Position numbers and translations under genes: made by a program. Shown here piece after piece: positions 788-59,152 of a stretch of DNA of 59,152 bases (position 1 is its first letter; each line of letters begins with the position of its first letter). The notes under the pieces are model-generated. The model searched no databases. It was not told the DNA's origin and saw only the letters and a program-made list of their open reading frames with translations. This stretch comes from a virus (lineage: Duplodnaviria; Caudoviricetes): positions 1-59,152 of IMG/VR virus record IMGVR_UViG_3300043764_000029. One strand, given 5' to 3'.

Positions 788-1002
788 GCTGGGCCATCTC
801 CAGGGGATCCGTTGCGAAGTCGGGTGGTGGTGTTCCCGGGGGCGCGGCGCCGCGCGGCTGGTAACGGCGCAACTCGGCTGCGGTGCTCACCCGCGCCACC
901 AGCGGGGCTTGTGGCGGCACTTCTGCCACCACCAGAGAAGCCGAGCGTCCCGGTGGCAGTAGAACCTGAACCCGTGGGCGGCAAGCCAGCGCCGCAGACC
1001 AA

Positions 1003-1299
1003 TCACCGTTGCTCCTGGCGGTAGTTCTCGTTGGCGGGCGTGCCGTTCCCGGCCGGGATGCCGCGCGCCGCACAGCAGGCCGCACAGCGCGGTGCCCCGA
1101 GTCGGCTGGGCATGCCGGGCATGGACCAGCGGCGCCGCAGGGTGCAGGCGGCGTGCAGGACTGGTCGGGTGCCGTGGTCGATGTGGTCGCGCATCTGCTC
1201 TGGGGCCAGCAGTCCACCATGGATGGCGTGGAGGCGTCGCCACTTGCCGCAGGTCAGCCACCAGTGCCCGTGGTTCTCCGCGATCGGGTGCGAGGTCAC
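1003..1299 (-). CDS. Cys-containing phage hypothetical protein
   Basis: Near-identical copy at 56591..56887; coupled overlaps. Confidence 0.75.
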   Translation of the reverse strand: MTSHPIAENHGHWWLTCGKWRRLHAIHGGLLAPEQMRDHIDHGTRPVLHAACTLRRRWSMPGMPSRLGAPRCAACCAARGIPAGNGTPANENYRQEQR

Positions 1300-1301
1300 C
1301 G

Positions 1302-1591
1302 CTACCTCCCCGCCAGCAGCGGCAGCGCCAGCAGGACCACGGCGGCCACCAGGCCGGCGAAGAAGCCGAACTTCGCGACGCCGGGCGGGATGCCGAACTC
1401 TGGGCGGCCCCAGATCAGGCGGTGCTTGCTCATCGCTGCTGCTCCCATGTGTACCGGCGCCGGTCGGCGGTGTTTCCCCTGATCAGCGCGACTGCGAACC
1501 AGCCCCACCAGGCCCGGAGGATGGTGACGTTGCTGCGGTACCAGCCCGGTCGCTTCTGGAACGGGCCGCTGACCTCGAACTCGACGATCAC
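1302..1591 (-). CDS. Two small coupled ORFs (1430..1591, 53 aa; 1302..1433, 43 aa with TM helix)
   Basis: Conserved in the right copy 56890..57179; GTGA/ATGA overlaps. Confidence 0.6.
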
Positions 1592-1964
1592 GAGGCGCCC
1601 TCGGTCCCGTCGGCGCCGACCGGTCGGAAGACCGTCAGTTCGGCACCGCGCGGCAGCACGAGGAGAGGCACGTCGCCGACTAGGTCCCGCCACCGGGCGC
1701 TCAGTTCGGCTGCCTGCTGCGCCGTCAGGTTGTGGCCGACGGTCAGTGCGAACAGGTCGCCGGGGCGGACTTCGACGCGGCGAAGCTCGCCCGCCTCGAT
1801 GCGCAGTGTCTCGTCGCTCACTGGCCCTCCTCGTCGATGGCGTCGCCCATGGCGCAGCCCGAGCAGCCGCGTCGTCCGCATGTGCAGCAGCCTGGGCAGT
1901 CGCCGAGGCACCAGCCGCCGCAGGGCGTGTGCTGGTAGTCGGCGGGTGGTGGTTCGTCGCTCAC
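1588..1964 (-). CDS. Two small coupled ORFs (1818..1964 Cys-rich; 1588..1821)
   Basis: GTGA overlaps chain them between neighbouring genes. Confidence 0.55.
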
Positions 1965-2347
1965 GGCTGCTGCTCCCATCCGTAGGCCTCGGCGAGCAGC
2001 AGCACCGTCCGACACGGCCAGTCGACCGTCTCGTGGAAGGCGTGGCCGCGCCCGTTGGTCTCCTCTGACGGCCTGCCGCAGGTCGAGCAGTCCCCGCCGT
2101 CGTTGGCGTGCTCGGCGAGGATCTGCCGGTCCGCCGCCACCCGACGCAGAACGGACTCCGGGTCGTGCAGCACGATGTGCTCGGCCGTCGGCGTCTCGGT
2201 CTCCAGCAGGTGCGAAGTCTCGTCGAGCACCCAGGAGTCGCCGAGCTTGTCACCCCGAACCGCCTGCCAGCGGTGGCCGGACGCTTCCCGCGCGATCCGC
2301 TCGATCCGGTCGAGCACCTTCTCCAACCGCGCCGCAATGTCGCTCAC
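1961..2347 (-). CDS. DUF6221-like phage protein
   Basis: HIVLHDPESVLRRVAADRQIL..WPCRTVLLLAEAYG signature. Confidence 0.75.
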   Translation of the reverse strand: MSDIAARLEKVLDRIERIAREASGHRWQAVRGDKLGDSWVLDETSHLLETETPTAEHIVLHDPESVLRRVAADRQILAEHANDGGDCSTCGRPSEETNGRGHAFHETVDWPCRTVLLLAEAYGWEQQP

Positions 2348-3002
2348 GGTCGTTCCTCCCCGTACAGGGCCGCGAGCAGCCGCCGCACGGGCACGGCCTC
2401 GTCCTCGCGGTACTGCCGCGCCACCTTCCGCACGCGCTGCAGCGTGGCCTCGGTCTCCCGCATCCGGGCCAGCTCCGGCATGAACGCCCTGCGCAGGATG
2501 CCGGCGGCGATGCGGCGCTGGTGGTCGCCGGTCGCGTCGATGCAGCGCCGTTCCGGCCAGGGGATGTCCTGGATTGCGGCTTCGATGCGGTCGCGCGCGG
2601 CGCGGTTGCTGCTCGGCAGGATGTGGGGCAGGTCGTTCACTGCTTCACCTTCGGGTCGATCAGGTCGGCGGCCGCCCGGACCGCGTTGCCCTGCAAGATG
2701 GTCTCGTGGTCCAGGGACCCGTGCTTGGCCAGCTCGGCTCTCTCGTACGCGGCCTGCCAGGCGCGCTGCTTCTCGGCGAGCCCGTGCACGAATGCGTCGA
2801 GTTCCTCGGCCGCGTCCTTCAAGTCCTCCGCGAGCGGGCCGCAGTTGTAGTGGCCGCCGCATGTCGAGCCGCCCGCGATCAGCTTGATCAGCTCGTCGCG
2901 CTTGCTCACCACCGGCTCCGCTTCACCCGGGCCGACGTAGATCGCCGTATTCCAGGGCCCGTCACTGCCCAGGAGGGGACCGATGCCCTCGAACCCGCTC
3001 AC
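2344..3002 (-). CDS. Two hypothetical proteins (2637..3002; 2344..2640)
   Basis: 2637..3002 is nearly identical to 57977..58342; GTGA coupling. Confidence 0.65.
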
Positions 3003-3208
3003 CGCTGCTCCCCCGCCCCGCCGGCCAGCCAGCGTTCGACGTCGCTACGCCGGTACCTGATCTGGCCACCCGGCTTCGTGAACGGGATGCCGATCCCCAG
3101 GCACCGGTGGTTCGCGAGCGTCTTACGGCTCAGCTTCGTGAGCGCCGCCGTCTCCGCCGGGGTCAGCCACTCCTCCGAGTCAGCCACCGATACCTCCGCA
3201 GTCATCAA
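2999..3208 (-). CDS. Excisionase/AlpA-like HTH protein
   Basis: WLTPAETAALTKLSRKTLANHR..IPFTKPGGQIRYRRSDVERWL. Confidence 0.8.
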   Translation of the reverse strand: MMTAEVSVADSEEWLTPAETAALTKLSRKTLANHRCLGIGIPFTKPGGQIRYRRSDVERWLAGGAGEQR

Positions 3209-3349
3209 GTGATACTGCGGGAAGTGTGATGACCGCCCGGGACAACTACCGCAGCTGCCCAGCCGCTCACCGACGCGGATTGTCCCGACCGATGTCCAAC
3301 CCGAGCACGAACGCCAGAACCACCGCGACCAGCCACCACACCAGCGCCG

Positions 3350-3850
3350 TCACCGCAGCTGCTCCATGTCCACACCCACCACCTCGTACGTCAGCCCACC
3401 CGAAACCTGCGCCTTCACCGGCTGGTCCAGGCCCAGCAGCTTCCGCCGCGACTCGCTGATCCGCACCAGTCGATCGATCGCCTGCAACACCGGCCCGTCG
3501 TCCGGCAGCGGCACACCGTCCAGCTCGATGACCTTGCCGTTCGACACGGTGATGTGCCGTGCCTCCAGCACCTTCAACGCCGCCTGGTAGAGATGGTCGA
3601 GCCGCTCCAGCTCGAACGCGACGGCAGCGGCAGCCGGCTCGGCAACGATCTCGGAGAGGGCCCGTTGCACTGCGTCGTGGGCCGCGCGAACGTCGTACCC
3701 CATCTCGGCAGCGATCTGCCGGTAGCTCTTGCCTTCGGCTCGGAGCTGGGCGGCCTTGGCGTCGCGCTCGGCGGTCTCGGGAGTGCGGATGAATCGGCCG
3801 CTCGGTCCCCGTGTTGAGTCGGTCTGGCGTTGAGCTGGCTGGTCGTCCAT
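3350..3850 (-). CDS. terS: Putative terminase small subunit
   Basis: N-terminal HTH (GKSYRQIAAEMGY), RRKLLGLDQP motif, position upstream of terL. Confidence 0.75.
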   Translation of the reverse strand: MDDQPAQRQTDSTRGPSGRFIRTPETAERDAKAAQLRAEGKSYRQIAAEMGYDVRAAHDAVQRALSEIVAEPAAAAVAFELERLDHLYQAALKVLEARHITVSNGKVIELDGVPLPDDGPVLQAIDRLVRISESRRKLLGLDQPVKAQVSGGLTYEVVGVDMEQLR

Positions 3851-4024
3851 GCTGCCTCCCCTCGTCGCCCGAGGCTACGGGCCGCATGGGTCAGCCCCCG
3901 GAACCGTCGTCCCGGGGGCTGCGCGTGGACCACCCATCCACAACCGTCACCGCGGTGCCGCCCTCGGGGGAGGTTGGCGGCCCGCAGTGCCTCACGTCGG
4001 AGGGTGGCAGGCGGCCGGGACAGG

Positions 4025-4117
4025 TCAGCGCCGGTTGGAGCGGATGGCGGCGGTTATGGCCCAGATGATGGCGGCCAGGATGGCGAGGGCGATGACGACA
4101 TAGTGCCAGGGTTCCAC
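4025..4117 (-). CDS. 30-aa single-TM protein
   Basis: GAGGAG RBS, GTG start, VEPWHYVVIALAILAAIIWAITAAIRSNRR. Confidence 0.5.
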   Translation of the reverse strand: MEPWHYVVIALAILAAIIWAITAAIRSNRR

Positions 4118-4203
4118 GGTGTCTCCTCTGCGGGATGGGCGGCGCTCATCCTTCCGCATGTGGTGTCACTGTGGCGGGTGGTTCGGGAATGCTGTGGCGG
4201 CGT

Positions 4204-4602
4204 TCAGGCGTCGGGTGCCCACTCGGGCCGGTACTGGGAGTGCCCGTGGAACGGCAGCGCGAGAACTCGCAGTATCCACTCGGCGCGTGAGCGTTCGGGC
4301 TCGTCGCGCCGAATCATGTGTCCGCACTCTGCGATGATGCGCCGTTTGGTGTCGACCTCGGCCAGCACCCTCGCGGGATCGTGGCGGGCGATGTGTCCAG
4401 CGCAGTCGCCATGCATGAAGCCATTTGGGTCAACGGCCACGACGATGTGCCCGGCCCGCACTCCCTCTCCGCCGTCCTCGTCGGCCGACCATTCGGTGTA
4501 GCCGTCGCTGTTGTCGAGGCAGCGGGTTGAGCTCTTGGCACCGAGGGCCCAGCGCTCGTCTTCGTCGAGGCGGGCTCTCAGAAAGTCCACGAGATCCATC
4601 AT
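4204..4602 (-). CDS. DUF6221-like phage protein
   Basis: DLVDFLRARLDEDE..HIARHDPARVLAEVDTKRRI..LRVLALPF..YRPEWAP. Confidence 0.85.
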   Translation of the reverse strand: MMDLVDFLRARLDEDERWALGAKSSTRCLDNSDGYTEWSADEDGGEGVRAGHIVVAVDPNGFMHGDCAGHIARHDPARVLAEVDTKRRIIAECGHMIRRDEPERSRAEWILRVLALPFHGHSQYRPEWAPDA

Positions 4603-5294
4603 CGCTCGGCCTCCTTCAGCACGCTCTGCACAGCCATGAGGCTACGGCCCACCTCGACCGCTATCTTCCTCTGAGACATCCCGTTCTGGCTGAGCTTCCA
4701 GATTCGCGTCTTCTCTTCGTTGCTGAGCTTCGTCTTCTGCAGGCCGCGCTCCGCTCTTGCCTCGCGCTGCCGAGCGGCGCTCCGCTCGTTCTCACACTGC
4801 CGACAGCGATCTCTCGGACGGCCCTTGTCGGTCACGACCGCCCGGTTGTCTCCCTCCTTGGCATGGCCTTTTGCACAGTGGGACTTCCGGGGCGGTCGGT
4901 ACGTTCTGCCACGCGTGACGGCGTCGCGCGTGTTCTCAACGACCGTGCCGGGGTAGAGGTGGGCAGGGTTGACGCATGGCGGGTTGTCGCAGTGGTGGAG
5001 GATCCACAGACCATCTGGGATCGGCCCGTTGGCCTGTTGCCAGGAGTACCGGTGCGCGGGGGTCTTGCCCCAACGTCCGTAGCCCTGCTTGTCTCGCGGT
5101 TCGGTCCAGAGCCAGCATCCGTGTTCGTGGGTCTTGATGACCTTGTCCCAGAACTTCACAGTGAATCGGGGTGCGGTGCCCCGCTCGTCTTTCGGGGTGT
5201 GGCTGAGCCAGCGGCTGTAGCAGCGGGTACACATGCCGCGCGTCAGCTTGTCGGTCCGGCCGCATTGCTCAGTTGAGCAGGTCCGTTCTTCCAT
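4599..5294 (-). CDS. HNH homing endonuclease with C-terminal HTH
   Basis: CWLWT..AHRYSW..ILHHCDNPPCVNPAHLYPGTVVEN; THC-x2-GH-like Zn motif; SQRKIAVEVGRS HTH. Confidence 0.88.
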   Translation of the reverse strand: MEERTCSTEQCGRTDKLTRGMCTRCYSRWLSHTPKDERGTAPRFTVKFWDKVIKTHEHGCWLWTEPRDKQGYGRWGKTPAHRYSWQQANGPIPDGLWILHHCDNPPCVNPAHLYPGTVVENTRDAVTRGRTYRPPRKSHCAKGHAKEGDNRAVVTDKGRPRDRCRQCENERSAARQREARAERGLQKTKLSNEEKTRIWKLSQNGMSQRKIAVEVGRSLMAVQSVLKEAER

Positions 5295-5352
5295 GTCGGC
5301 TCCATCTCGTAGTGGTGGCCGCCCCGGCAGGTGTCGGGGCGGCCGTGTCGGT

Positions 5353-5582
5353 TCAGCGGTCGGCGGGGTGGCAGGTGTGGCCGGGTTCGGCCCACCAGCC
5401 GCAGTTCGGGCAGGTGGACCAGGCGGCGGTAAGGGCCGCGAGCAGGCGGTGGATCACCGGTGTCTCCGGAGGCGGTTGGCGGCGTGGACGGCGGTTTCGA
5501 GGAGCCACGTGAGGCCCCAGTAGCCCGCCACGGCACCCGCGATGATCAGGGTGAGGATGAGCGCGACGACGGCACGATCCAT
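5353..5582 (-). CDS. Two small ORFs (5454..5582, TM, 42 aa; 5353..5457, CPNC, 34 aa)
   Basis: Hand translation; GTGA coupling. Confidence 0.45.
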
Positions 5583-5609
5583 GGCGGACTTCCGGGGTAG
5601 TTGGGGTTC

Positions 5610-5670
5610 CTAGGGCCCGGCTAGGGCTGCTAAGCGGCTAGTGTTTGTGCAGCTCATAGGGCGCTAGGCC
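5610..5670. repeat. Cluster of (C/A)TAGGGC-type 7-mer direct repeats (clt-like)
   Basis: ctagggc 5610 and 5621, ctaagcg 5630, ctagtgt 5638, atagggc 5656, ctaggcc 5664. Confidence 0.6.
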
Positions 5671-6218
5671 GGTTCGGCGAGGGGCTCGGGCCTCTCCTGG
5701 GGGAGGGCCAGCGGCTGGAGGTCGTCGCGGTGGATGCCGGCGCGGTTGCGGCCGTCGAGGTAGAGCTGGGAGCGGACGGGGATGCCGTACGCCTCGTACT
5801 GGCGGCGGAGGGTGGGGGCGTCCCACTCAGTCATGCCTTGGGCGTGGAGTTCCTCGGCGATGTCGGCGAGGTGGACGCCCTTCCGGTCGGCCAGCTTGTA
5901 GCCGAGGAGCCGCATGAACTCGGACCGGACGTGGTCGGGGTCGAGGTTCTCCGGGCGCTTGGCGCTGGGGTGTTCCGTGGCCGGGCCGGCTGGGGCAGCG
6001 GCGGCTCGCCAGGCGGCGATGCACCAGGCGCAGGTTCCGCCGACGAGCCAGAGCGGCGCTTGGTGGGCCAGGTCGAGGACGTACGGCGCGAGCCACGCGG
6101 CGATGCCGACGCGGGCCACGGCGGCGACGGGTCGGCCCTGGGGCACGAAGGCCCGGCCGATGCGCCCAGCGACGATCTGGGAGCCGCTGTAGAGCCGGTT
6201 GGCGGCGCGGGCGGTCAT
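5664..6218 (-). CDS. Membrane protein with TraB-like C-terminal winged-helix domain, no ATPase
   Basis: Two hydrophobic segments, then GVHLADIAEELH..WDAPTLRRQYEAYGIPV..DGRNRAGIHRDDL. Confidence 0.55.
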   Translation of the reverse strand: MTARAANRLYSGSQIVAGRIGRAFVPQGRPVAAVARVGIAAWLAPYVLDLAHQAPLWLVGGTCAWCIAAWRAAAAPAGPATEHPSAKRPENLDPDHVRSEFMRLLGYKLADRKGVHLADIAEELHAQGMTEWDAPTLRRQYEAYGIPVRSQLYLDGRNRAGIHRDDLQPLALPQERPEPLAEPA

Positions 6219-7216: not shown

Positions 7217-8212
7217 TCAACCTGCGACGCGGCGGCGGGTGCGCTCGACCGTGTCGGGGTTGACGTCGTGTCCGTGGACGCGGCGGACAGCGGCGAGGAC
7301 AGCGTCCGGCTTGTCCAGGCCGGCGCGGACAGCGCGGCGGACAGTGTCCGCGATCGACTTGTCCGTATTGGTGCCGCCGATCGGGAGGATCCGGGCTGAG
7401 CTGGTGTCCTGCTGTCCGGACACGGCGCGGACGGTGTCCGGGTCGGTGTCGAATCCGGCGGTGGTGAGGGCGTCGGCGATGTCCTCGGGGCTGGCGCCGG
7501 GCATGGTGGCGAGTGCCGCGGCGATGGCTGTCCGAATGTCGGCGGACACTGGGGGACGCTGTTTGCCAGGCTTGTCCGGGCCGTCCCCATCGGTGTCCTC
7601 GGGTGCCAGCGGGGCGGGGAGCATGAGCGGCGCGCGGCGGGTGATCTGCCGTTGCATGTCGATCCGGCTGACGGCCACGTCGAAGTCGGCAAGGTCTTCG
7701 GCCTGGCGGAGTTCGCCGTCGCGGCGGATGCGGGCGAGCTTCGCGGCGTGCTCGGCGTCTTCGCGTGCCTGGTCTGCGGCGGCGCGGGCGGTGATGTGCC
7801 GGGCCTGGCGGAGGACGTCGTTGACCTCGTCCTGCTGCTCGGTGGTGAGCGCGGTGGGGTCGGCGGTGAGTTGGGCGTCGACGTGCCAGAAGAGCTCGGC
7901 GGCGAGCGGGGGGACGACGGCGACGATGCCGCCCCACCCGTAGGTGCCGAATCCGTGGACGGCGAGGATGGCGAGGGTTCCGGCGAGGCCGGCGAGCATC
8001 GCGACGCAGGTGAGCTTTGTGCGCTGGGCCCGGTAGGCGAGCATTCCGCCGACCCACAGGCCTTCCGCGCCGGTTCCGGCGGTGATGGCGACGGGGCCGA
8101 CGCCGAGGAGGTCCCAGACGCTGTAGAGGGTCCATGCGGCGCTGGCGGCGGTGAAGATGGCGGCGATGATGCGTGGGGCGTGGTGCTTGAGGGTACGGGT
8201 GCGGCTGACCAT
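7217..8212 (-). CDS. SpdB-like membrane protein (4 TM, coiled coil, C-terminal helical domain)
   Basis: Architecture matches Streptomyces plasmid spread proteins; AGGAG RBS. Confidence 0.6.
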   Translation of the reverse strand: MVSRTRTLKHHAPRIIAAIFTAASAAWTLYSVWDLLGVGPVAITAGTGAEGLWVGGMLAYRAQRTKLTCVAMLAGLAGTLAILAVHGFGTYGWGGIVAVVPPLAAELFWHVDAQLTADPTALTTEQQDEVNDVLRQARHITARAAADQAREDAEHAAKLARIRRDGELRQAEDLADFDVAVSRIDMQRQITRRAPLMLPAPLAPEDTDGDGPDKPGKQRPPVSADIRTAIAAALATMPGASPEDIADALTTAGFDTDPDTVRAVSGQQDTSSARILPIGGTNTDKSIADTVRRAVRAGLDKPDAVLAAVRRVHGHDVNPDTVERTRRRVAG

Positions 8213-26990: not shown

Positions 26991-27209
26991 ATGCACGTCT
27001 TGCACGTCTGCCATTTTGTTGACCTCGGGCCAGCCTTCATCGGCTGGGCCGCCGACGTTGAAGGGGCGGTCACCTGCATCGTCACGCCGCGCGTGCACGA
27101 TGACGAAGCCGTTCGGAACCAAGCCCGCGAACTCCTCCACCGCGCCGGAGCCGACCCGGAGCCCTGCTCCTCTGCCTGCCCCAACGCCCTTCCCCCACGG
27201 GAGGGCTGA
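26991..27209 (+). CDS. 72-aa protein translationally coupled to the integrase
   Basis: GAGGTG RBS; TGATG overlap with int. Confidence 0.6.
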   Translation: MHVLHVCHFVDLGPAFIGWAADVEGAVTCIVTPRVHDDEAVRNQARELLHRAGADPEPCSSACPNALPPREG

Positions 27210-28459
27210 TGGGATGGTCAGAGAAGCGCGGCGGCACCTGGCGCGCACGATTCAAGCTGCCCGACGGGACCTACGGCTCCGAGCCGGGCTTCCTCACGAA
27301 GGCACAGGCTGACGCCCACTGGCAGGCGCAGGAGACCGACGTCCGGCGAGGAGACTTTTTCGACCCGAGCGCCGGCGAGCTGATGACCTTCCAGGAGTGG
27401 GCCGAGCAGTGGCTCCAGACGGTCGACCTCGCGCCGGACAGCGAGTACAACTACGCCAAGCGCATCCGGCGACTGAACAAGCAGTGGGGTAATGTCCCCC
27501 TCTCCCGCATCACCACGACGGCGTACCTCGCCTGGGAGAAGACCGTTCGCTCGGAGTTGTCGTTCAACTACTCGACCCAGTTGCTGCAACTCTTCCGAAT
27601 GATCATCGCGGATGCGGTGGCCCACCAGCCTCCCCTGCTCAAGGCATCGCCCGTTCCCGCTCTCAATCGGCGGCGGGGCCGCTACACAGCGCCGCCACCG
27701 AGTGAGATTGTCAGCGTCACCGCCGAGCAGGTTGAGGAACTGGCCGAGAACGCCCGCGCCGTCTGGGGCCTGACCGGCTACGTCTTCGTGCTCACCAAGG
27801 CCTACTGTGGGCTGAGGCAGGGTGAGATGTACGGCCTGCGCAGGGAGTGGTGCTACCCGAACTGGCCCAAGTCGGACCCGGGTTGGGCTGAGAACCCCGG
27901 CGGACGGACGGCCGAGCGCAAGCGCGTGAAGGCCGCAGCCGAGCGGTACGCCAAGATGCCGGCGCTCCGCGTGCAGTGGCAGCACCAGTACGTGAAGCCG
28001 CGCGAGGGCGGCAAGCGCGTGCCCACGCTCGTGCTGCCCAAGTACGGATCGATGCGCGACCTGGTGCTTCCGCCGTTCCTGGCAGACCTCCTGGTTCAGC
28101 TCCTGGACTCGCACGACAGCGAGTGGGTCTTCCCCGCGATGGGTGGCGGCCCGCTGCTGACCACCGACTTCTCCACCCACGTCTGGATGCCGATCGTGCG
28201 TGGTGCCGACGAGCGCACTCGACGGGTTCGGCGCCCCAAGATCGAGCCGGTGGAGGGGCTGGAGGACGCTGTGCCGCACTGGCTCCGCCATGCTATGAAG
28301 CGGTGGGTCGACGAGGACGGGCATTCGCGTGTTGCCGTGGAGACCCGAATGGGACACCGGCTGCAGGGCGTTGAGGGTGTGTACGCTGGCGTCACGCCGA
28401 CGATGGAGCTACGGATCGCCGAGTCGCTCCAGGAGCGATGGGAGAAGGCCAGAAGTTGA
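27209..28459 (+). CDS. int: Tyrosine integrase
   Basis: Arm-binding N-terminus; GLRQGE (R), HWLRH, MGH, GVY catalytic residues. Confidence 0.95.
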   Translation: MGWSEKRGGTWRARFKLPDGTYGSEPGFLTKAQADAHWQAQETDVRRGDFFDPSAGELMTFQEWAEQWLQTVDLAPDSEYNYAKRIRRLNKQWGNVPLSRITTTAYLAWEKTVRSELSFNYSTQLLQLFRMIIADAVAHQPPLLKASPVPALNRRRGRYTAPPPSEIVSVTAEQVEELAENARAVWGLTGYVFVLTKAYCGLRQGEMYGLRREWCYPNWPKSDPGWAENPGGRTAERKRVKAAAERYAKMPALRVQWQHQYVKPREGGKRVPTLVLPKYGSMRDLVLPPFLADLLVQLLDSHDSEWVFPAMGGGPLLTTDFSTHVWMPIVRGADERTRRVRRPKIEPVEGLEDAVPHWLRHAMKRWVDEDGHSRVAVETRMGHRLQGVEGVYAGVTPTMELRIAESLQERWEKARS

Positions 28460-50763: not shown

Positions 50764-52070
50764 TGCGCCTCCTCGGCGTGGTTGTGCAGCCACGCCGGGG
50801 CCGGCGCGCTGTGGTCGTGGAGCCAGCCGGGGATCCCGGCATGGTTGTCGGTGCCGCCGTCGTCGTCGCCTTGGTGGGCGTCGTCGAGGTGCGCCTGCAG
50901 GTGCTTGCGGACGCCCGCCTTGTCGGCCTCGGGGATCTTGGAGCCCTCGAGGCGGGCGAGGCCGTTACGGCACGCTGCGACGTTCGCCGCGCCACCCTTC
51001 GTGCGGTGATGGGGGAAGCGGTAACTCGCCTTCTTGTCGTCGGCGTCGCCGTCGGGGTCGTCGGCGGTGCCGTCGTCCGCTGCCGAGTCCTCCCACGCGT
51101 GGCAGTAGCGCAGAACGGTGGCGTCGTTCGGCATCGCGGCGACTGCGGCCGGGCCGTCCCACGGCTCGTCCACCGTGGCGGTGTGGTGGACCGGTAGTGC
51201 CTCGTTGGTCAGCGGCATCGACTCGACGCCCAACACCCGCCCTGGCGCCCGGTTCTCAGTGGCGTGGGCGTGGTGGTGGTCGGCGTCCCCGTCGTGGGTG
51301 TGCTCGTGCTCGTGGCTGCCATCACCGCCCTGGTCGCCGAACGCCGGGTGCGCGTGCGTGTGGGTGCCGGTGAACGGGCCGTGCCCGGCCTGGTCGGCGT
51401 TGTGCAGGCGCGGGGCGTGCGCGTACAGGCTCAGGTCGAAGCGTGCTGCTGCGGCGAGCGCGTCCTGCGCCGGACGCTCCGCGAGCTTGTGCGCGAGGCC
51501 GGCGGCCACGGCCTCGTCGGCGTTGTACCAGGTCTCCTGCTGCATCGCGTCGCGCCAGCCGTCCGCGCGGCCGGTCTGGTCGGCGTAGATGCCCGCGATG
51601 TTGTCGGAGACCTTGTCAAGGAGCTCGGCGGTCTCGCGCATGTCCGACGCGTTGCCCATACACAGGCCACTGGCGTCGTGAATCATCATCATCGCGCCGG
51701 GGCAGATCAGCCGCTGCGTCCCGGCCATGGCGATGAACGACGCTGCGGAGGCGGCGATGCCGTCCACGATCGTGGTGACCTTGCCGGGCCGCTGCGCCAG
51801 CGAGTTGTAGATCGCCAATCCGTCGAAGACGTCCCCGCCAGGCGAGTTGATGTGGACCTCGATGTCGCCGTTGATGGACGCCAGCTCGTTGACGAAGTCC
51901 ACCGCGGTCACGCCGCTGGCGAACCAGCCGCCGCCGCCGATCTCGTCATAGATGTCGACGCGAGTCGGGCCGCCGGCGTCATTGCGGAGCACTCGGTACC
52001 AGCTGCTCTTCGGCTGCTGGACGAGGTTGGTGATGCGCTGCGCCGAGCGCCGCATCGCGTCACGGTTCAC
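50760..52070 (-). CDS. ClpP-type head maturation protease with His-rich linker and C-terminal extension
   Basis: HINSPGGDVFDG, GIAASAAS, MMIHDA, ETWYNADEA. Confidence 0.93.
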   Translation of the reverse strand: MNRDAMRRSAQRITNLVQQPKSSWYRVLRNDAGGPTRVDIYDEIGGGGWFASGVTAVDFVNELASINGDIEVHINSPGGDVFDGLAIYNSLAQRPGKVTTIVDGIAASAASFIAMAGTQRLICPGAMMMIHDASGLCMGNASDMRETAELLDKVSDNIAGIYADQTGRADGWRDAMQQETWYNADEAVAAGLAHKLAERPAQDALAAAARFDLSLYAHAPRLHNADQAGHGPFTGTHTHAHPAFGDQGGDGSHEHEHTHDGDADHHHAHATENRAPGRVLGVESMPLTNEALPVHHTATVDEPWDGPAAVAAMPNDATVLRYCHAWEDSAADDGTADDPDGDADDKKASYRFPHHRTKGGAANVAACRNGLARLEGSKIPEADKAGVRKHLQAHLDDAHQGDDDGGTDNHAGIPGWLHDHSAPAPAWLHNHAEEAQ

Positions 52071-52332
52071 CGGGCCACCGCCTCGGAGGGCATCGCCGCG
52101 GCGCCGACCAGGAGCAGGCCGGACATCTGCCCGGCGGAGGTGTTGATGGCCTGAGCCCACGCGTGCGCATCGTCTCGGGACAGGAACACGGTCATCGTCG
52201 TCGAGCCGGTGCGGACGGTCAGCGCCATGCGCTGCCCGCGCGGGGTGTCGACCAGCGCGGTGGTGATCTGCGCCGGGGTCTCGCCGAGGAGTTGGTTGCC
52301 CGGGTCGAACGGCGGAGGCTGCGGTGGGGTCG

Positions 52333-53703
52333 TCATCGGGCACCCGCCCGGTTCCACGTGGGCAGCTGCTGAGCCATCAGCGCCTCCAAGTTGGCGTCGT
52401 CGTCCTGCCCCGGTTCGGGCGCGGCTGGTGCCGCGGGCACCCACGCCGGCGGCAGCGCCGGGGCCTGAGTCGCCTGCTCCACCACGCCCATGTCCGGGAG
52501 GCCCACTGTCTCCAGCACGTCGGACGGGTCGTAGCCCGCGCCGACGAGCCACAGGGCGGCCTGAGCCTTCGACTTGAGCTCCAGCGCGTCGGCCTCACGG
52601 TTGCCGGTGACCGGGTCGTCGTGGTCGAGTTCGACGCCTTCACCGGTGGAGCCGAACAGCGGCAAATAGCTGCAGTTGAGGGTGTCGCGCCACCGGTCGA
52701 GCCGGTCCGCGATCAGGAACGACTCGAAGTGCTCCTGTGCGGTCTGGGCGTTGGCCCTGTTGACGTCGTCCGAGGTGCCGAGGATGGACTTGTGCATGGC
52801 GAACGCTTCGCGGATGACGTCCCGGGAGACGCCGCGAAGGCCCGCGAAGTCCATGTCCCTGATCGTGTGGGCGTTCGGCACCCACACCATGCCCTGCTCA
52901 AGAATGGCGACGCGGTGCGCTGCGCCGACACCGCGGTGGGACTCGCGCCAGCGGTTGGTGAACTCGTTCCACTCGTCATCGCTGAGCCGCTTGTCGACCT
53001 GGATCACACCGCCAGGGGTCGCGGAGTTGAGGAAGAAGTTCCTGTTCCACTGCGCGCTGTATTTGCTGGCGTCGACGTCGACGAGGATCGACTGGACCGG
53101 CCCGAGCCCGTGGTAGATGTCGAACGGGTTCGGATACTTGATCTGGATGACCTCGTCGGGCTCCAGCGGCACCGACTCGCCGTTCGGGCCCTGGTAGATG
53201 TAGCCGTTCAGGAACCGCTCACGGCCCGGAACCGGGAACATGCGGTCCGGGCGGGCCGGCCACAACGCCATGGGGAACGTCGCGCGGCCATCGCGCTGCA
53301 CGATGATGTAGCCCTCGCCGGTGAGGTCGAGGTACGTCTGTGAGAGTTCGCGCAGCTGAAAGCCCGACATGAACGGGTTCGGCTTGTTCCACAGCGAGAT
53401 GGCCCAGTGCTTGATGACCTCGACGCGCTGATCGCTGCCCTTGTCGCCTGTGGTGTAGCGGCGGCGGCCGTCCTGCGGCTGCTGCCGGTACAGGTGCCAG
53501 CCCTGCTTGGCGGTCTGCCGGGCAAGCATGCTGACGATCGAGTAGACCGTGCCGGAGCTGCTGTAGGCGCGCATGTAGCTGCCCGGGTCCGATCCGGCGT
53601 TCCCCGATCCGATCGAGGCATAGCCGGGCGCGGAGTAGGCAATGGGCGGCTCGGCCGAGGCCCCGCCAGCCTTGCCGAGGATTGCTCCGATGAGGCTGCT
53701 CAC
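52333..53703 (-). CDS. Portal protein (HK97-type)
   Basis: PNPFMS..LDLTGEGY..GLGPV..FFLNSATPGG. Confidence 0.93.
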   Translation of the reverse strand: MSSLIGAILGKAGGASAEPPIAYSAPGYASIGSGNAGSDPGSYMRAYSSSGTVYSIVSMLARQTAKQGWHLYRQQPQDGRRRYTTGDKGSDQRVEVIKHWAISLWNKPNPFMSGFQLRELSQTYLDLTGEGYIIVQRDGRATFPMALWPARPDRMFPVPGRERFLNGYIYQGPNGESVPLEPDEVIQIKYPNPFDIYHGLGPVQSILVDVDASKYSAQWNRNFFLNSATPGGVIQVDKRLSDDEWNEFTNRWRESHRGVGAAHRVAILEQGMVWVPNAHTIRDMDFAGLRGVSRDVIREAFAMHKSILGTSDDVNRANAQTAQEHFESFLIADRLDRWRDTLNCSYLPLFGSTGEGVELDHDDPVTGNREADALELKSKAQAALWLVGAGYDPSDVLETVGLPDMGVVEQATQAPALPPAWVPAAPAAPEPGQDDDANLEALMAQQLPTWNRAGAR

Positions 53704-53981
53704 GAACGCATCCGGTCTGAGCCCGGGACGCCGGGCACCTTCTGCTCAAGCTTCCAGTCGAGGACCAGCACGGACAGGCCGGTGACGATCCATCCGACGA
53801 CCGTGTTCGCGGTGAACGCGCCTGTGTCGATGCAGCCGAGGCCGGCCGCTGTGAGAACGCTGCCGGAGAGGCGCGCGGCGGTGGCCTTGGCGTGGTCGGC
53901 GGCGCGGCGGGCGAGCAGCACGACAGCGCCCGGGATGCGGGCCCGTCGGGATGCCGGGATCTCGCCGATCACTGCCGTCAT
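53700..53981 (-). CDS. Small 2-TM protein between terL and portal
   Basis: Hydrophobic; coupled to portal. Confidence 0.65.
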   Translation of the reverse strand: MTAVIGEIPASRRARIPGAVVLLARRAADHAKATAARLSGSVLTAAGLGCIDTGAFTANTVVGWIVTGLSVLVLDWKLEQKVPGVPGSDRMRS

Positions 53982-54026
53982 GGCGTTGACGGTACGAATC
54001 AACCCCGACCCGACCCCGGGGCGTGA

Positions 54027-55346
54027 TCAGTACAGGATGCGGATCCGGGGCCGGCCGCCGAGATCCCGCTCGGCGACCATGTAGCGCAGGGCGTCCATCC
54101 CGTGATCGTCTTGCTTGACGGGCGCTTCCTTCGGCTGCTTGCCGGGCTGCGCATCCCACACGTACCCGGTGATCTCCTCGACCGTGGAACACGGCTTCTT
54201 GGCGTCCGCCAGCTCCGGGTCACGCTTCACGAGAGCGTCGCGGCAGATGAACAGCCGCGGCTTGCCGTCGCCAGCAGCCCGGAGCCGGGCCTGCACGGCT
54301 TGGATGCCGTCGCTGACCGTCTTGTGGGCCGGGCTGGTACCCATGCCGAGGTGGCGTTCCAGGGTGGCGCGGTCCTCGGCGTCGTGGTCGCAGATGACCG
54401 CGCGCGGCTTCGGCTCGATCCACTGCCCGTTGGGGGCGACGATGCTGAGGATGTCCTTGGCGTGGTCCTCGACCAGGCGCTTGGACTGGTAGATCTCCCT
54501 GGTCAGGTAGAGGCGCCCGTCCCCGTCCTCCGCCCAGCACTGGAGCACAAGCGGGTTGGAGTACCCGAAGTCGATCGACCACCACCTTGACCACCCTGGC
54601 TGCACAACGGACCGGTCAACGAGGTGCACGGTCGGATCCCAGCCCTCGTAGATCAGCCCCTCGGCGGCAACCCACCGGCCCCAGCGCATCCGCTCATACC
54701 GGGCCCCCACCAGGCTGTCGAGGCGTGCGAGGTACGACTTCCCGTACTCGGTCCACTCCCCGTCCTGGTACATGCGGGGGTTGTCCTCGTGCTTGCTGTA
54801 CAGGATCTGGCAGCGGCCGGCGTCGGCGCGGAGCTTCAGGTGATGGGTTGGAGGGCCGGGATTGGTGGCCATGATCAGGCGCTGGCGGCTGAGAACTCCG
54901 TTCCTGAGGCGCGTAACGATGGTGTCCAGATCCTCTTCCGTAACTTCAATTGCTTCGTCAACAAACGCCAGGTCAAACTCGGTGCTCAACAGTCGACTTG
55001 CCCGGTCGAGGCCGCCAATCACGATGACGGAGCCGTTGGAGTACCGGAAGCTGGCCGGCTCCTGCGCCGATCCGCCGTAGAAGTGGAGCAGGCCCGCCTG
55101 AATCGCCTCCTTAGCGACCTTCTCCCGGAACGTGACCAGGGTGGATGCGGTAAGCGAGGCATGCGTCTTGCGCACGATGAGGACGCGCACTTTGGGCTTC
55201 GAAAGGCACGAGAGATGGACGTACATCAACGCGCCCACCGATTTCCCCGTTCCCGCCGCACCCGAGATCAGCAGCTCGTTAGCCGTCGACTGGAAGAGTT
55301 CCTGCACGGCTCCACGAGGCTCATACCGAACCACGGTGTTAGTCAC
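54027..55346 (-). CDS. terL: Terminase large subunit
   Basis: GAAGTGKS, FVDEA, IDFGYSNP, DDHGMDALRY. Confidence 0.95.
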   Translation of the reverse strand: MTNTVVRYEPRGAVQELFQSTANELLISGAAGTGKSVGALMYVHLSCLSKPKVRVLIVRKTHASLTASTLVTFREKVAKEAIQAGLLHFYGGSAQEPASFRYSNGSVIVIGGLDRASRLLSTEFDLAFVDEAIEVTEEDLDTIVTRLRNGVLSRQRLIMATNPGPPTHHLKLRADAGRCQILYSKHEDNPRMYQDGEWTEYGKSYLARLDSLVGARYERMRWGRWVAAEGLIYEGWDPTVHLVDRSVVQPGWSRWWSIDFGYSNPLVLQCWAEDGDGRLYLTREIYQSKRLVEDHAKDILSIVAPNGQWIEPKPRAVICDHDAEDRATLERHLGMGTSPAHKTVSDGIQAVQARLRAAGDGKPRLFICRDALVKRDPELADAKKPCSTVEEITGYVWDAQPGKQPKEAPVKQDDHGMDALRYMVAERDLGGRPRIRILY

Positions 55347-56091
55347 GATGACGCTCCAGATAGGCCGCTGCCGCACGTAGGCGTTCAGGCTCGTCCTGGA
55401 ACTTGCCTATGCCCTGGTTGCACGACCCACACAACAGGCCCCTCAGGCACCGCCCGCACGACTTGCCCGGGTCAGGGCAGCATGCATGGTCGTGATCTAC
55501 AGCCAGCATTCGCCCTGAGGCGCACTGTCTGCCACAGATGGCACACCCGCCAGCCTGCGCTTCGAGCATGGCTCGATACCCGGCAGGGGTGAGCCCGTAG
55601 CTCCTCAGTCGGGCCTTGTTTCGGTTGCAGTCCTTGCACTGGTACGAAAGCTTGTCGGGGTGTCTGTTGTTCGCACCGAAGGCGGGTTCGGGAATCCATG
55701 CGAGGCAGGAGCGGCATAGCTTCCTCCCCTGGCCGTCCCGTTCGAGGTGCGACCGCCATGCCCGGATCTGGGTCAATGGCTGGCCATCGACCCTCTGTCG
55801 GTTGTGTGTTTCGCACAGGCCGTGTGCTGCCACGTATCGATCACAGGTGGCGAAGGTGCATACGCTTCGGCTCTTCACGATGGTCCTTGACGGGTCGCCG
55901 TGGATGGTCCAGCGCCGGTAGTGCATGTCGCACCAGCCGCGCTTGAGTGCCGGTTTCTCGCAGGCTTCGACGGCGCAGCGAGGACGCCCCGTTCCCTCGT
56001 TGCGTTGCCACTGGTTGTAGTGCGTGCCGCACATTCCGCGGGCCCGGTGCGGCCGTTCGCATTCGGGCATGTCACAGGTACGCTGCGCCAT
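55339..56091 (-). CDS. Endonuclease VII-family homing endonuclease
   Basis: Three C-x4-C..C..H repeats; YGLT..QAGGCAIC..LAVDHDH..RGLLCGSCNQGIG. Confidence 0.9.
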   Translation of the reverse strand: MAQRTCDMPECERPHRARGMCGTHYNQWQRNEGTGRPRCAVEACEKPALKRGWCDMHYRRWTIHGDPSRTIVKSRSVCTFATCDRYVAAHGLCETHNRQRVDGQPLTQIRAWRSHLERDGQGRKLCRSCLAWIPEPAFGANNRHPDKLSYQCKDCNRNKARLRSYGLTPAGYRAMLEAQAGGCAICGRQCASGRMLAVDHDHACCPDPGKSCGRCLRGLLCGSCNQGIGKFQDEPERLRAAAAYLERHRD

Positions 56092-56121
56092 GGGGTTGCC
56101 TCTCATCCAGGTGCCTCCGCG

Positions 56122-56170
56122 CCCCGGGACGGTTGCCTCCGTCGCCGGGGTCTTTGCACTGATCATTCTA
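56122..56170 (-). promoter_or_regulatory. Promoter (-10 TAGAAT) and leader hairpin of the EndoVII gene
   Basis: TAGAAT 56165-56170; CCCCGG-GACGG..CCGTC-CCGGGG stem. Confidence 0.5.
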
Positions 56171-56399
56171 CCGTTCATGCAGCTCAACTCGCCTGTATTG
56201 CTGGCTAGTTAGCCCTTATCGCACAGGGATGCTGGGTGCGATTCCGTCGGCATCTGGCGAAGCTTGACTCTTCTCATTGCCGGGTCGGGTCGTGATGAGC
56301 GAGTCGACCAGGGAATCCGTTGCGAAGTCAGGCGGTGGTGTTCTCGGTCCCGCTGCTGCCGGTGTCGTACTCGTGCGACATGATCTTGGCGGGTTTGTC

Positions 56400-56594
56400 T
56401 CAGAGGACGTACGGCTCGCAGGCGAGCAGCTCGTGTCCGCGCTCCTGGTATCAGCGGTCCAGCGCGGTCGCCATGGCCTCGCGAAGCTCCTGGTCCACGT
56501 CGTCGGTGTACATCTGCTCACCGTCCTTCTCGGGCAGGTGCCCGGAGTCGCGGGTGGTGAAGGAGATCTCGAGGTGGTGATGCTCGCGGCTCAC
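56400..56594 (-). pseudogene. Small ORF with internal TGA (likely Trp-to-stop)
   Basis: ..ALDR*YQERGHELLACEPYVL*. Confidence 0.4.
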
Positions 56595-58342
56595 GGCTGC
56601 TCCTGGCGGTAGTTCTCGTTGGCGGGTGTGCCGTTGCCTGCGGGGATGCCGAGCGCCCTGCAGCACGCGGCACAGCGGGGTGCGCTGACGCGACTGAACA
56701 TGCCGGGCATGGACCAGCGGCGGCGCAGGGTGCAAGCGGCGCGCAGAACCGGTCGAGTGCCGTGGTCGATGTGGTCGCGCATCTGGTCGGCGGTCAGCAC
56801 CGTGCCGGTGATGGCGTGGAGGCGACGCCACTTGCCGCAGGTCAGCCACCAGTGGCCATGGTTCTCAGCGATCGGGTGCGAGGTCACGGCTACCTCCCGG
56901 CCAGCAGCGGGAGCGCGAGCAGGACCACGGCGGTGACCAGGCCGGCGAAGAAGCCGAACTTCGCGACACGGGGCGGGATGCCGAACTCCGGGCGGCCCCA
57001 GATCAGTCGGCGCTTGCTCATCGCTGCTGCTCCCATGTGTACCGGCGCCGGTCGGCGGTGTTTCCCCTGATCAGCGCGACTGCGAACCAGCCCCACCAGG
57101 CCCGGAGGATGGTGACGTTGCTGCGGTACCAGCCCGGTCGCTTCTGGAACGGGCCGCTGACCTCGAACTCGACGATCACGAGGCGGCCTCCGCCTGCTCC
57201 AGCCGTCGGATCGCCTTGTCCAGCTCCTTGCGGAACTTCCGCGCGTCCGCCAGCACTTCCTCGCGGCTGCCGTAGCCGATCACCCACGCGTCGCACGAGT
57301 GAGGCAGCGAGAGAGCCCACTCACCTTCACCGGCCCACGTGCTCGATGGGGATTCCCCGTCGACCGGTTCGCCGACGGGCTCGGCATCCCAGGAGTCCTG
57401 CCCCGGGCGCTTCAACCAGAACGTCACCGCTGTTCCTCCGTCCATCCGTAGGCTTGGGCGAGCAGCAGCACTGTCTGGCAAGGCCACGGCACACCGACCC
57501 GCTCGACCACCGTCCTGCACTCCACGGTCTCGATCTCCTGGCCGTCAGCACAGCGCACGCACTCGGGCTGCCGCTGGTCGCCGTCGCTGGCGTGCTCGGC
57601 GAGGATCTGTCGGTCCAACGCCACCCGGCGCAGCACGGCCTCGGTCGATCCCGCACCCATGAGGTGCCCAGCAGCCTTGTACTCCTCGGCGTGCACGCCA
57701 ACGTCTTCTGCTGCCCTTGCGTCAGCCGCAGCCTCGTCCAGGGCCTGCTGCAGGAACGCCACGGCCGGATGCCCGCTCACCGCTGCTCTCCGTTGTGGTC
57801 GGGACTGTTGTGGGCGCGGGCCACGAAGCGCAGCACGGTGTTGATGGCCCCGACGTCGGACGCGGTGAGCATGTGTCCGGCACGTCCGATGCCTTCGGTG
57901 CTGTCGAGGTGCCGCGCGGCGAGGATCACGATCTCGCTGGGGCGTTCGACGAGGATTCGGCGGGGATGGGTGTCGTTCACTGCTTCACCTCCGGGTCGAT
58001 CAGGTCGGCGGCCGCCCGGACCGCGTTGCCCTGCAAGGTGGTCTCGTGGTCGACCGAGCCGTACTTGATGAACTCGGCGGCTTTCCGCGCTTCCGACCAG
58101 GCGCGCTGCTTCTGGGCGAGCTCGTGCACGAACGCGTCGAGCTCCTCGGCGGCGTCCTTCAAGTCCTCGGGCAGCGGGCCGCAGTTGTAGTGGCCGCCGC
58201 ATGTCGAGCCGCCTGCGATCAGCTTGATCAGCTCGTCGCGCTTGCTCACCACCGGCTCCGCTTCGCCCGGTCCGACGTAGATCGCCGTATTCCAGGGCCC
58301 GTTACTGCCCAGCAGGGGACCGATGCCCTCGAACCCGCTCAC
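56591..58342 (-). CDS. Small-gene array paralleling 1003..3002 (includes DUF6221-like 57424..57780)
   Basis: Blocks near-identical to the left copy alternate with unrelated genes. Confidence 0.7.
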
Positions 58343-58707
58343 CGCTGCTCCCCCGCGCTTGCGCCGCACTCGTTGCAGGTGAAGCCGTAGGCAGGAGCTC
58401 CGTAACACGCATTGCAGGCCGGGGCGGCGAGGAGTTGGACAGGCTCGACGCCGAGGACTTCGGCAAGAGCCACCAAGTCGTCGGCGTCGACGCGACGCTC
58501 ACCCTGTTCGATGCGCCGGAGACCAAGCACCGGAATGGGGCGACCGATCACGGCCAAACGTCGGGAGAGCGCCACGTAGGTCATCACCCGCATGGCGCGA
58601 AGGCGTCGAATGTTCTCGGCGACCATCGTTCCTGTAGGGCCGAGCGTGCTGATCTGAGTGTCTGCCACATCGAAAGGATGCGGATCGGCTCGGACAACTA
58701 CCGCCAC
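58339..58707 (-). CDS. XRE HTH with C-terminal Zn ribbon
   Basis: ENIRRLR..LRRIEQGERRVDADDLVALA; CNAC..CNEC. Confidence 0.75.
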   Translation of the reverse strand: MAVVVRADPHPFDVADTQISTLGPTGTMVAENIRRLRAMRVMTYVALSRRLAVIGRPIPVLGLRRIEQGERRVDADDLVALAEVLGVEPVQLLAAPACNACYGAPAYGFTCNECGASAGEQR

Positions 58708-58800
58708 CGGTCGCCGCTCACCGACGCGGGTTGTCCCGGCCGATGTCCAGGCCCAGCACGAACGCCCCGACCACCGCGAGCACCCACCACATCGCGTCCG

Positions 58801-59152
58801 TCACCGCAGCTGCTCCATGTCCACACCAACCACCTCGTACGTCAGCCCGCCCGAAACCTGCGCCTTCACCGGCTGGTCCAGGCCCAGCAGCTTCCGCCGC
58901 GACTCGCTGATCCGCACCAGCCGGTCGATCGCCTGCAGGACCGGTCCGTCGTCCGGAAGCGGCACACCGTCGAGCTCGATGACCCTGCCGTTCGACACGG
59001 TGATGTGCTGCGCCTCCAGCACCGCCAACGCCGCCTGGTAGAGATGGTCGAGCCGCTCCAGCTCGAACGCGACGGCAGCGGCAGCCGGCTCGGCAACGAT
59101 CTCGGAGAGGGCCCGTTGCACTGCGTCGTGGGCCGCGCGAACGTCGTACCCC
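58801..59152 (-). CDS. terS: Terminase small subunit, 3' part (5' end outside window)
   Basis: Almost identical to 3350..3701. Confidence 0.75.
   Translation of the reverse strand, partial: GYDVRAAHDAVQRALSEIVAEPAAAAVAFELERLDHLYQAALAVLEAQHITVSNGRVIELDGVPLPDDGPVLQAIDRLVRISESRRKLLGLDQPVKAQVSGGLTYEVVGVDMEQLR

Follow-up and report, generated by a model that had tools for sequence, protein, structure and literature searches.

The window analyzed here is a whole virus record of 59,152 bases (IMG/VR virus record IMGVR_UViG_3300043764_000029), classed as linear and 100% complete, and all coordinates refer to it. At its right end, a gene for a free-standing EndoVII-type endonuclease lies directly upstream of the packaging gene terL, and remnants of an older terL lie upstream of the nuclease gene. 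A second terL, the left terL, stands at the opposite end of the record. Nearly all genes are carried on the minus strand. L-numbers denote fetched loci or contigs, WR denotes the window's right terL, and phages carrying the left or right arrangement are called L-type or R-type. The right-end features, from terL toward the upstream side, are as follows.

54027 to 54818, minus strand: terL 3' part; its first 107 nucleotides (nt) are identical to those of L045
54819 to 55346, minus strand: terL codons 1 to 176, cassette linked; 57 to 90% identical to L045 per 30-codon window
54897 to 54917, minus strand: VTRLRNG codons GTT ACG CGC CTC AGG AAC GGA, with the rare Arg codon AGG
55339 to 56091, minus strand: free-standing EndoVII-type endonuclease of 250 amino acids, with three N-terminal Cys/His repeats and a C-terminal CX2C-DHDH-R-CX2C-N catalytic domain
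56092 to 56120, minus strand: Shine-Dalgarno region just before the nuclease start codon, able to form a small second hairpin
56121 to 56150, minus strand: leader hairpin 1, of 6 + 5 bp with one bulged C, whose inner stem covaries
56165 to 56187, minus strand: conserved 23-nt box ending in the -10-like TAGAAT, occurring once in the window
56266 to 56297, minus strand: relic 2, ITTRPGNEK, a second copy of the terL motif region
56308 to 56352, minus strand: relic 1b, ENTTA*LRNG (56316 to 56345) plus 8 nt of shared junction, in the frame of relic 1a; 36/40 to the left relic and 41/45 to L002
56364 to 56399, minus strand: relic 1a, DKPAKIMSHEYD, corresponding to terL codons ~115 to 126 of an L-like allele

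Pfam Endonuclease_7 (PF02945) matched residues 193 to 278 of the long open reading frame (ORF) with an E value of 2.9e-22, and PHROG endonuclease VII families matched as well. The nuclease starts at ATG 56091, which replaced TTG 56187 as the start, and the domain makes up the last ~85 of its 250 residues. In translation, the signature reads CAIC, VDHDH, the Arg in GRCLRG, and CGSCN. This is the Endo VII motif (CX2-4C, DHDH, R, CX2C, N) that, in Fang et al. 2018 (PMC6083498), marks F-CphI and the "DHHRN" homing endonucleases; there, a C-terminal motif characterizes the "endonuclease clade" and an N-terminal motif characterizes resolvases. The motif of the present protein is C-terminal, so that it shares the catalytic signature and the layout of the "endonuclease clade." Unlike F-CphI, the nuclease has no associated group I intron, and its N-terminal part, with the three Cys/His repeats, is different. 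The gene gave the single EndoVII match in the whole record, and PF01844 (HNH) found no match in the record. The nuclease stop overlaps the GTG start of terL by 8 nt in another frame; the gene is separate from terL and has a ribosome-binding site and stop of its own.

A nuclease gene was present directly upstream of terL at 12 of 58 distinct terL loci and absent from 43, with 3 unknown. In a quick tree, the 12 positive loci fall at about seven places, and three sister pairs differ in presence (WR/L045, L008/L007, and L015/L014). Homologues of the nuclease occur in 671 phage records at varied genome positions. Loci without the gene have terL immediately next to the putative small terminase gene, and loci with it usually read small terminase, leader, nuclease, and then terL. 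Five nuclease-free relatives that are 97 to 100% complete had no match to PF02945 or PF01844 anywhere (0/5), and since such nearly complete phages lack both, the gene appears not to be needed for packaging. The initial annotation had treated the nuclease as mobile, and its scattered distribution bears this out. The gene is mobile, self-contained, dispensable, and sporadic, which is the profile of a free-standing homing endonuclease. Passages in a Skunavirus study (PMC12724721) use variable presence as a criterion of homing, as was done here.

The three fragments that had been matched to the left terL were all recovered when window positions 1 to 6000 were compared with 52000 to 59152 by blastn. 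Positions 56364 to 56399 matched left terL 410 to 445 (32/36; E value, 1e-7), 56316 to 56345 matched 335 to 364 (25/30), and 56266 to 56297 matched 329 to 359 (27/32), the last containing a 14/14 run at 56284 to 56297. In local alignments to the left terL, the three pieces scored 24, 15, and 15, against a maximum of 14 in 500 dinucleotide-preserving shuffles of 56188 to 56590 (0/500 reached 15). The matches are real, but they form two units rather than the three stacked relics first described, because relics 1a and 1b are colinear and in the same frame. On the minus strand, that single frame reads DKPAKIMSHEYD, six unrelated codons, and ENTTA*LRNG; the same two peptides lie 15 codons apart in the left terL, and the relic shows a net internal loss of 27 nt. 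Relic 2 begins 18 nt beyond relic 1b.

Relic 1a starts immediately after the original stop of a small ORF and in the same frame, and the terL homology of relic 1b ends right after AACGGA (Asn-Gly) and is followed by 8 nt that are not terL. The closest partner of 56308 to 56347 was not the left terL but left positions 800 to 839 (36/40). Among 63 terL 5' queries, the best match to relic 1a came from L002 and not from the adjacent terL. About 100 nt are recognizable of the ~456 nt expected. The upstream fragments read as what is left of codons 1 to ~152 of an older, L-like terL and stop right after the RLRNG codons, in agreement with the initial view that the relics end at this motif. One candidate for the terL N terminus, YQERGHELLA... 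(56400 to 56447), was rejected; it is the tail of the small ORF homologous to L029:3296-3490. The right-end architecture is no assembly artifact, as one 2067-nt unitig (depth 127) of run X1, probably the source run, covers 54789 to 56855 with 0 differences, and pieces of the right end were identical or 98% identical in two other soil-metagenome studies.

The same scar lies at the left end of the window and in an independent contig, L002, a complete record of 54,145 bases with terminal repeats whose terL is 98.9% identical to the left terL. The left-end features are as follows.

2 to 787, minus strand: left terL, 5' 262 codons, running off the record
800 to 863, minus strand: left scar copy, a remnant of the terL N terminus, RRYQPRGAA (~847 to 863), joined to NTTTRLRNG (800 to 839); no nuclease gene

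The left scar ends 12 nt before the left terL start. In L002 the scar lies directly before that contig's own terL in one frame, RQHQPRGVAPVTGPENTTARLCNGFPGDGPA*, again without a nuclease gene. When the right, left, and L002 versions were combined, the ancestral scar was seen to have comprised the terL start together with the DKP and RLRNG segments, which were later trimmed by different deletions. A relic pattern search found only the contig of L002 among viral contigs and none among metagenome contigs. Searches for relics by tblastn over 63 loci returned the known scar and six unrelated-looking matches only. A DNA-level search was noisy, with 18 real matches versus 1 control match at >=34 bits, and besides the known scar none was colinear with terL beside a cassette.

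The left and right terL proteins are only 51% identical, and the two genes are, we think, alleles of two co-occurring phage strains brought together by a wrap-around assembly and not two genes of one genome. This view is based on the diverged ends, the excess length of the record, and the co-occurrence of both types at unequal depth. The record ends are diverged copies (1003 to 1602 versus 56591 to 57190 at 91%, with more blocks at 91 to 93%, from the same blastn comparison), the record exceeds one genome by ~3.6 to 5 kb with a repeat period of ~55.6 kb, and R-type and L-type phages were found in the same soil-metagenome runs at very unequal depth. A tandem prophage pair is a possible alternative source of the two terL copies. 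When the copied ends were compared as a whole, window 1 to 3701 versus 54566 to 59152 was ~91% identical, with differing terL alleles.

The right terL is itself a mosaic. Its motif is recoded as the initial annotation described, reading GTT ACG CGC CTC AGG AAC versus ACG ACC CGA CTC CGC AAC in the left terL. The G+C content at third codon positions (GC3) is 0.745 in the nuclease gene, 0.767 in terL codons 1 to 176, and 0.916 in the remainder of terL (Fisher p, 2e-5), so that the gene is indeed AT-richer on the motif side. The best change-point in the GC3 profile is at 54842, 55 nt beyond the motif, and the deepest dip (0.57 to 0.67) is at codons 121 to 170. Compared with the nuclease-free L045, the right terL shows 8 to 21 differences per 50 nt, affecting nearly every codon, up to 54819 and then none until 54711; beyond these 107 identical nt there are 6 differences in 169 nt. 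From 54422, the terL 3' part aligns with the L-type contig L002 at 82 to 87% identity. There is thus a sharp recombination breakpoint at 54819, 78 nt past the RLRNG codons. Because GC3 matches and the break against L045 is sharp, the nuclease gene appears to have been imported as one unit with the 5' part of terL. This is consistent with the proposal that the nuclease travels with the terL 5' part, whose 3' boundary would lie at 54819 to 54842, 55 to 78 nt past the motif.

A blind scan of 1653 terL pairs identified three independent sharp identity steps, located, relative to the motif end, at +82 in the right terL, at -33 to -45 in the L023-L028 group, and at +717. Two of the three breakpoints lie within 85 nt of the motif, both with the divergent side 5'. 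This clustering, two of three in a 170-nt stretch of a 1.3-kb gene, is suggestive (p of ~0.05 by our own rough estimate). In L025:3813-3899, compared with L026 and L028 (also L022 and L027), an 87-nt patch over Walker B holds 21 synonymous and 0 nonsynonymous differences against a background of 3 to 6 differences per 100 nt; many of the changes are to T-ending codons, and the patch ends 24 nt before the SRLRNG codons. For L025 and L026, the sharp step picked up by the scan is the border of this patch. The phages of this patch (L022 and L025-L028) are all without the nuclease gene. The RLRNG motif is nearly invariant at the DNA level across the family. With regard to co-conversion, the right terL mosaic fits, by its breakpoint at 54819 and its matching GC3, and the pairs L007/L008 and L010/L021 show none.

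We consider it about an even chance that the locus is the scar of ectopic homing, in which one-sided illegitimate repair of a break near RLRNG would have imported the nuclease together with the 5' part of a foreign terL, pushing the resident 5' part aside. The resident terL would have suffered a double-strand break near RLRNG, and a phage carrying the nuclease would have supplied the template for its repair. In most relatives, homology flanks the cassette on either side, in the small terminase gene and in terL, and the cassette would home cleanly. In the present lineage, homology would have been available only on the terL side, because ~10 extra genes lie between the small terminase gene and terL. 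The 3' end would then have recombined homologously, and copying would have run on into the donor's terL 5' part and its nuclease gene until end joining connected the copy to the resident 5' half left by the break. The expected product is a resident 5' half ending at the break, a junk junction, the cassette, and a hybrid terL, which is the observed order. The hybrid terL would have taken over, and in each of two lineages separate deletions would have eroded the displaced 5' half. Later exchanges would have swapped the cassette-linked terL 5' part again, and this replacement would explain why the relic is L-like and the present gene is not.

In L-type phages, the nuclease was perhaps lost through a deletion between two CTGG words. 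An alignment is possible between the L-type sequence after the scar, CCCTGGAG...CGTGAGT, and the 3' end of the nuclease gene, ...CTGGAGCG.CA.CGTGA; a deletion between the two CTGG words would be seamless. The chances that the L-type is a deletion derivative appear to us roughly balanced, and this is the weakest substep of the proposal.

A number of observations weigh against ectopic homing. The place of the putative break is deduced solely from where the homologies end. The scar also formed once. Being common to both window ends and L002, it is one old event in a single lineage and not the product of the repeated invasions first envisaged. The relic arrangement was indeed found in a relative, L002, where it stands without the nuclease; no convincing relic was seen upstream of 10 other terL-linked cassettes or at 34 further leader-bearing cassettes, at which the matches were of low complexity or out of frame. 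For the synonymous patch of L026 and L028, no sampled nuclease-positive allele is closest, and no donor could be identified in the allele sample. In terL, GC3 dips at one and the same position in WR and L013 and also in the nuclease-free L026-L028. The second Arg of RLRNG is encoded by AGG or AGA in 3/11 nuclease-positive rows and 0/40 nuclease-free rows, a low fraction of the former, and L089, whose nuclease is 66% identical, has CGG, so that AGG recoding does not hold throughout this nuclease subfamily. Phages L007 and L008 differ in nuclease presence, with a clean boundary at the terL start and no divergent 5' part, and share 94% identity starting with the first terL codon; for L010 and L021, identity is higher in the terL 5' part (83%) than in the 3' part (72%). 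The relic is L-type-like, yet the 3' part beside the breakpoint is L045-like, and therefore several successive events must be assumed. Finally, the deletion step depends on a 7-nt match, CCTGGAG, which is possibly just the terL ribosome-binding site.

Several of these observations are what ordinary module shuffling would predict, an account that is possible but that we consider less probable. Under it, illegitimate recombination unrelated to this nuclease fused a terL-plus-head module of foreign origin with a resident terL broken after RLRNG, and the cassette arrived later at its usual place; breakpoints would cluster at the motif merely because it is the most conserved DNA, where crossovers between diverged alleles can start. 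L-type phages bearing the scar without a nuclease gene, the L007/L008 difference in the cassette without a change in terL, and the absence of a relic at any other cassette examined all agree with shuffling, and the near-invariant motif DNA favors crossovers there. What shuffling does not predict is that an unusual GC3 is common to the nuclease gene and the 5' part of terL, with a sharp break, that purely synonymous patches stop at the motif, and that the scar junction, with 8 nt of non-terL sequence after AACGGA, is of the end-joining type and shows no homologous crossover. A functional role for the untranslated terL copies is far less probable. As target-site mimics, they would bind the nuclease as an autorepression operator or a decoy, as in I-TevI, whose autorepression acts at its own promoter. 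Two motif-region copies are kept within ~80 to 210 nt upstream of the cassette box, and sequencing runs of three studies carry the relic region without a difference. At that distance, however, the relics do not overlap the promoter-like box as an operator would, and none was found at the other cassettes examined (10 terL linked and 34 others). The L-type also retains relic 1b with no nuclease gene to regulate, and relic identity between lineages is ~90%; because this equals the identity of the neighboring DNA, there is no sign of extra constraint on the relics. The decoy or guide role offered in the initial annotation finds no support, on the same two counts of distance and absence elsewhere.

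The least probable of the alternatives, and one we consider very unlikely, is that the EndoVII protein is not selfish but is an accessory nuclease needed by the terminase, like the HNH protein gp74 of HK97. Work by Kala et al. in 2014 reportedly identified HNH proteins beside terminase genes as a packaging component. Passages in PMC12724721 likewise treat HNH proteins beside terminase genes in this way. In the present family the gene always adjoins terL, with overlapping stop and start, as a packaging gene might. It is nevertheless missing from 43/58 loci, and none of the five nearly complete relatives has an EndoVII or HNH match, so that the universal presence expected of a packaging component is not seen. 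Its presence also differs between L007 and L008, which are 94% identical downstream, and the same leader-plus-nuclease cassette precedes unrelated genes elsewhere.

T4 SegF is said to act in intronless homing, as is SegG according to Liu et al. 2003. As with the T4 Seg and Mob enzymes, a stand-alone nuclease lies between two genes and is variably present in close relatives, the flanking part of a neighboring essential gene appears to be coinherited, and the inferred cut is some hundreds of base pairs from the insertion. Unlike theirs, the catalytic family here is EndoVII-type and not GIY-YIG or classical HNH, and the host virus is a temperate actinophage of soil. Classical homing leaves no duplicate of the target gene, whereas here the displaced 5' fragment remains. 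T4 MobE is another enzyme of this kind, and intronless homing by free-standing phage endonucleases is treated in PMC2790892 and PMC2988022. For the displaced gene half, the closest likeness comes from fungal mitochondria. In Beaudet et al. 2013 (PMC3630166), the mORF hybrids of Allomyces atp6 and of Glomus atp6, atp9, cox2, and nad3 arise when an endonuclease ORF brings a foreign 3' gene end and the native 3' end stays behind unexpressed. Here, too, a foreign gene end joins a working gene, and the displaced native end is closer to the genes of relatives than to the insert. The two differ in that the phage case is a mirror image, with the 5' end replaced and the relic upstream rather than the 3' end replaced and the relic downstream; the nuclease is a separate gene and is not fused in frame; the genome is that of a phage and not an organelle; and decay of the relic is far advanced. 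Barth et al. 2023 (PMC10448857) report, in its abstract, that homing endonuclease genes adjoin essential genes at the edges of recombinant segments in ICP1 and other phages. That study concerns other phages and other nuclease families, and its abstract describes no target-gene relics. A literature search of limited scope found no description of terL relics beside a phage homing endonuclease or of the leader. The type of event is thus already known from fungal mitochondria, and, as far as we found, the phage case has not been described.

What sets the joints in mosaic phage genomes is an open question, and this locus is a concrete, testable case. The nuclease appears to have moved half of an essential packaging gene between phages and to have left a datable scar, and it possibly drove silent changes of codons in a conserved segment of the ATPase. 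Should the cut site be confirmed, terL alleles and scars could trace nuclease-driven exchange in soil phage populations.

The leader of the cassette may be the more novel item. Similarity to other cassettes starts at ~56195, and the leader is 84 to 87% identical between cassettes whose proteins are 35 to 41% identical; it is more conserved than the protein. Across 15 sequences, 99.4% of cells in the hairpin pair, and its three inner pairs show 16 double (compensatory) changes and 0 single changes. No shuffle (0/500) or slid register came near this covariation. The leader pattern matches more than 120 viral contigs, which is a lower bound. The 80 leader loci examined hold 61 distinct inner sequences, of which 52 form an inner stem of at least 4 bp with many different complementary 4-mers. 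Leaders were seen at L008, L012, L013, L015, L017-L021, L030, L089-L091, L095, L105, L149-L228, and L001. The genes behind them encode differing small nucleases and precede terL, protease-like genes, and others. These nucleases appear to be of different kinds, with EndoVII, HNH-like, and GIY-YIG-like N termini. In L001 (Gordonia phage Asapag), the hairpin and Shine-Dalgarno part precedes an otherwise dissimilar HNH gene. An Rfam cmscan of 55300 to 57000 with E values up to 5 found no leader family and only a chance-level hammerhead match elsewhere. A scan of 55300 to 56700 for sigma-70-type promoters found none, the box having only 11 nt between TTGAGC and TAGAAT. A leader shared by unrelated nuclease genes can serve to locate such cassettes and to study how phages restrain these enzymes.

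Taking the leader into account, we tentatively entertain a broader scenario, which we hold to be possible but rather unlikely. The Walker B to RLRNG stretch of terL would be a standing battleground of soil actinophages in which a large guild of leader-borne small nucleases (EndoVII, HNH-like, and GIY-YIG-like) attacks rivals and in which both nuclease-carrying and nuclease-free phages answer with purely synonymous recoding. Without flanking homology, half of the gene would be copied and the old half left as a scar. The leader would act as a cis-regulatory RNA of a new kind, controlling when the nuclease is expressed or holding its expression down.

Some further features of the cassettes were noted. 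In the aligned leader rows, a GNTAC word recurs by eye ~10 to 15 nt after the start codon whatever the protein. The L013 contig carries two leader-plus-EndoVII cassettes (L013:7209-7238 and 7482-7715; L193:9958-9992 is on the same contig), one before terL and the other before a prohead-protease-like gene starting MPFDPS.... This second arrangement, with the cassette before the protease-like gene, recurs in L170, L174, and L187. In L170, L187, and L193, the region upstream of the second-type cassette weakly resembles residues 81 to 165 of the downstream protease-like gene (27% over 91 amino acids; E value of 3e-4 in a tiny search space), which may be chance or a very old relic.

The virus is a temperate soil actinophage. 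Its DNA is present in soil-metagenome runs, an integrase gene lies at 27209 to 28456, and the head-tail module extends leftward from terL. A tRNA scan of the window found none. Two further features adjoin the relics on their upstream side.

56451 to 56594, minus strand: small ORF of 47 codons with a premature stop; its former tail runs to the original stop at 56400 to 56402, and its homologue is a 64-amino-acid ORF right before terL in L029
56591 to 56887, minus strand: gene X, 98 amino acids, no family; the last gene common to the left copy (1003 to 1299) and L002, at ~91% DNA identity

The premature stop of the small ORF reads DR* where L029 reads TW..., and the last 16 codons and original stop are still legible (56400 to 56594, minus strand). 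The homologue occupies L029:3296-3490, and the order small ORF to terL seen there is presumably the original arrangement. In the present phage lineage, the ~10 extra genes between the putative small terminase gene and terL are all small. A 166-amino-acid helix-turn-helix protein (3350 to 3850 and 58801 to 59152, minus strand) is encoded directly upstream of terL in nuclease-free relatives and, because of this position, probably represents the small terminase. Among PHROG families it matches phrog_645 best (E value, 3e-27), whose label, "RNase E," looks misleading.

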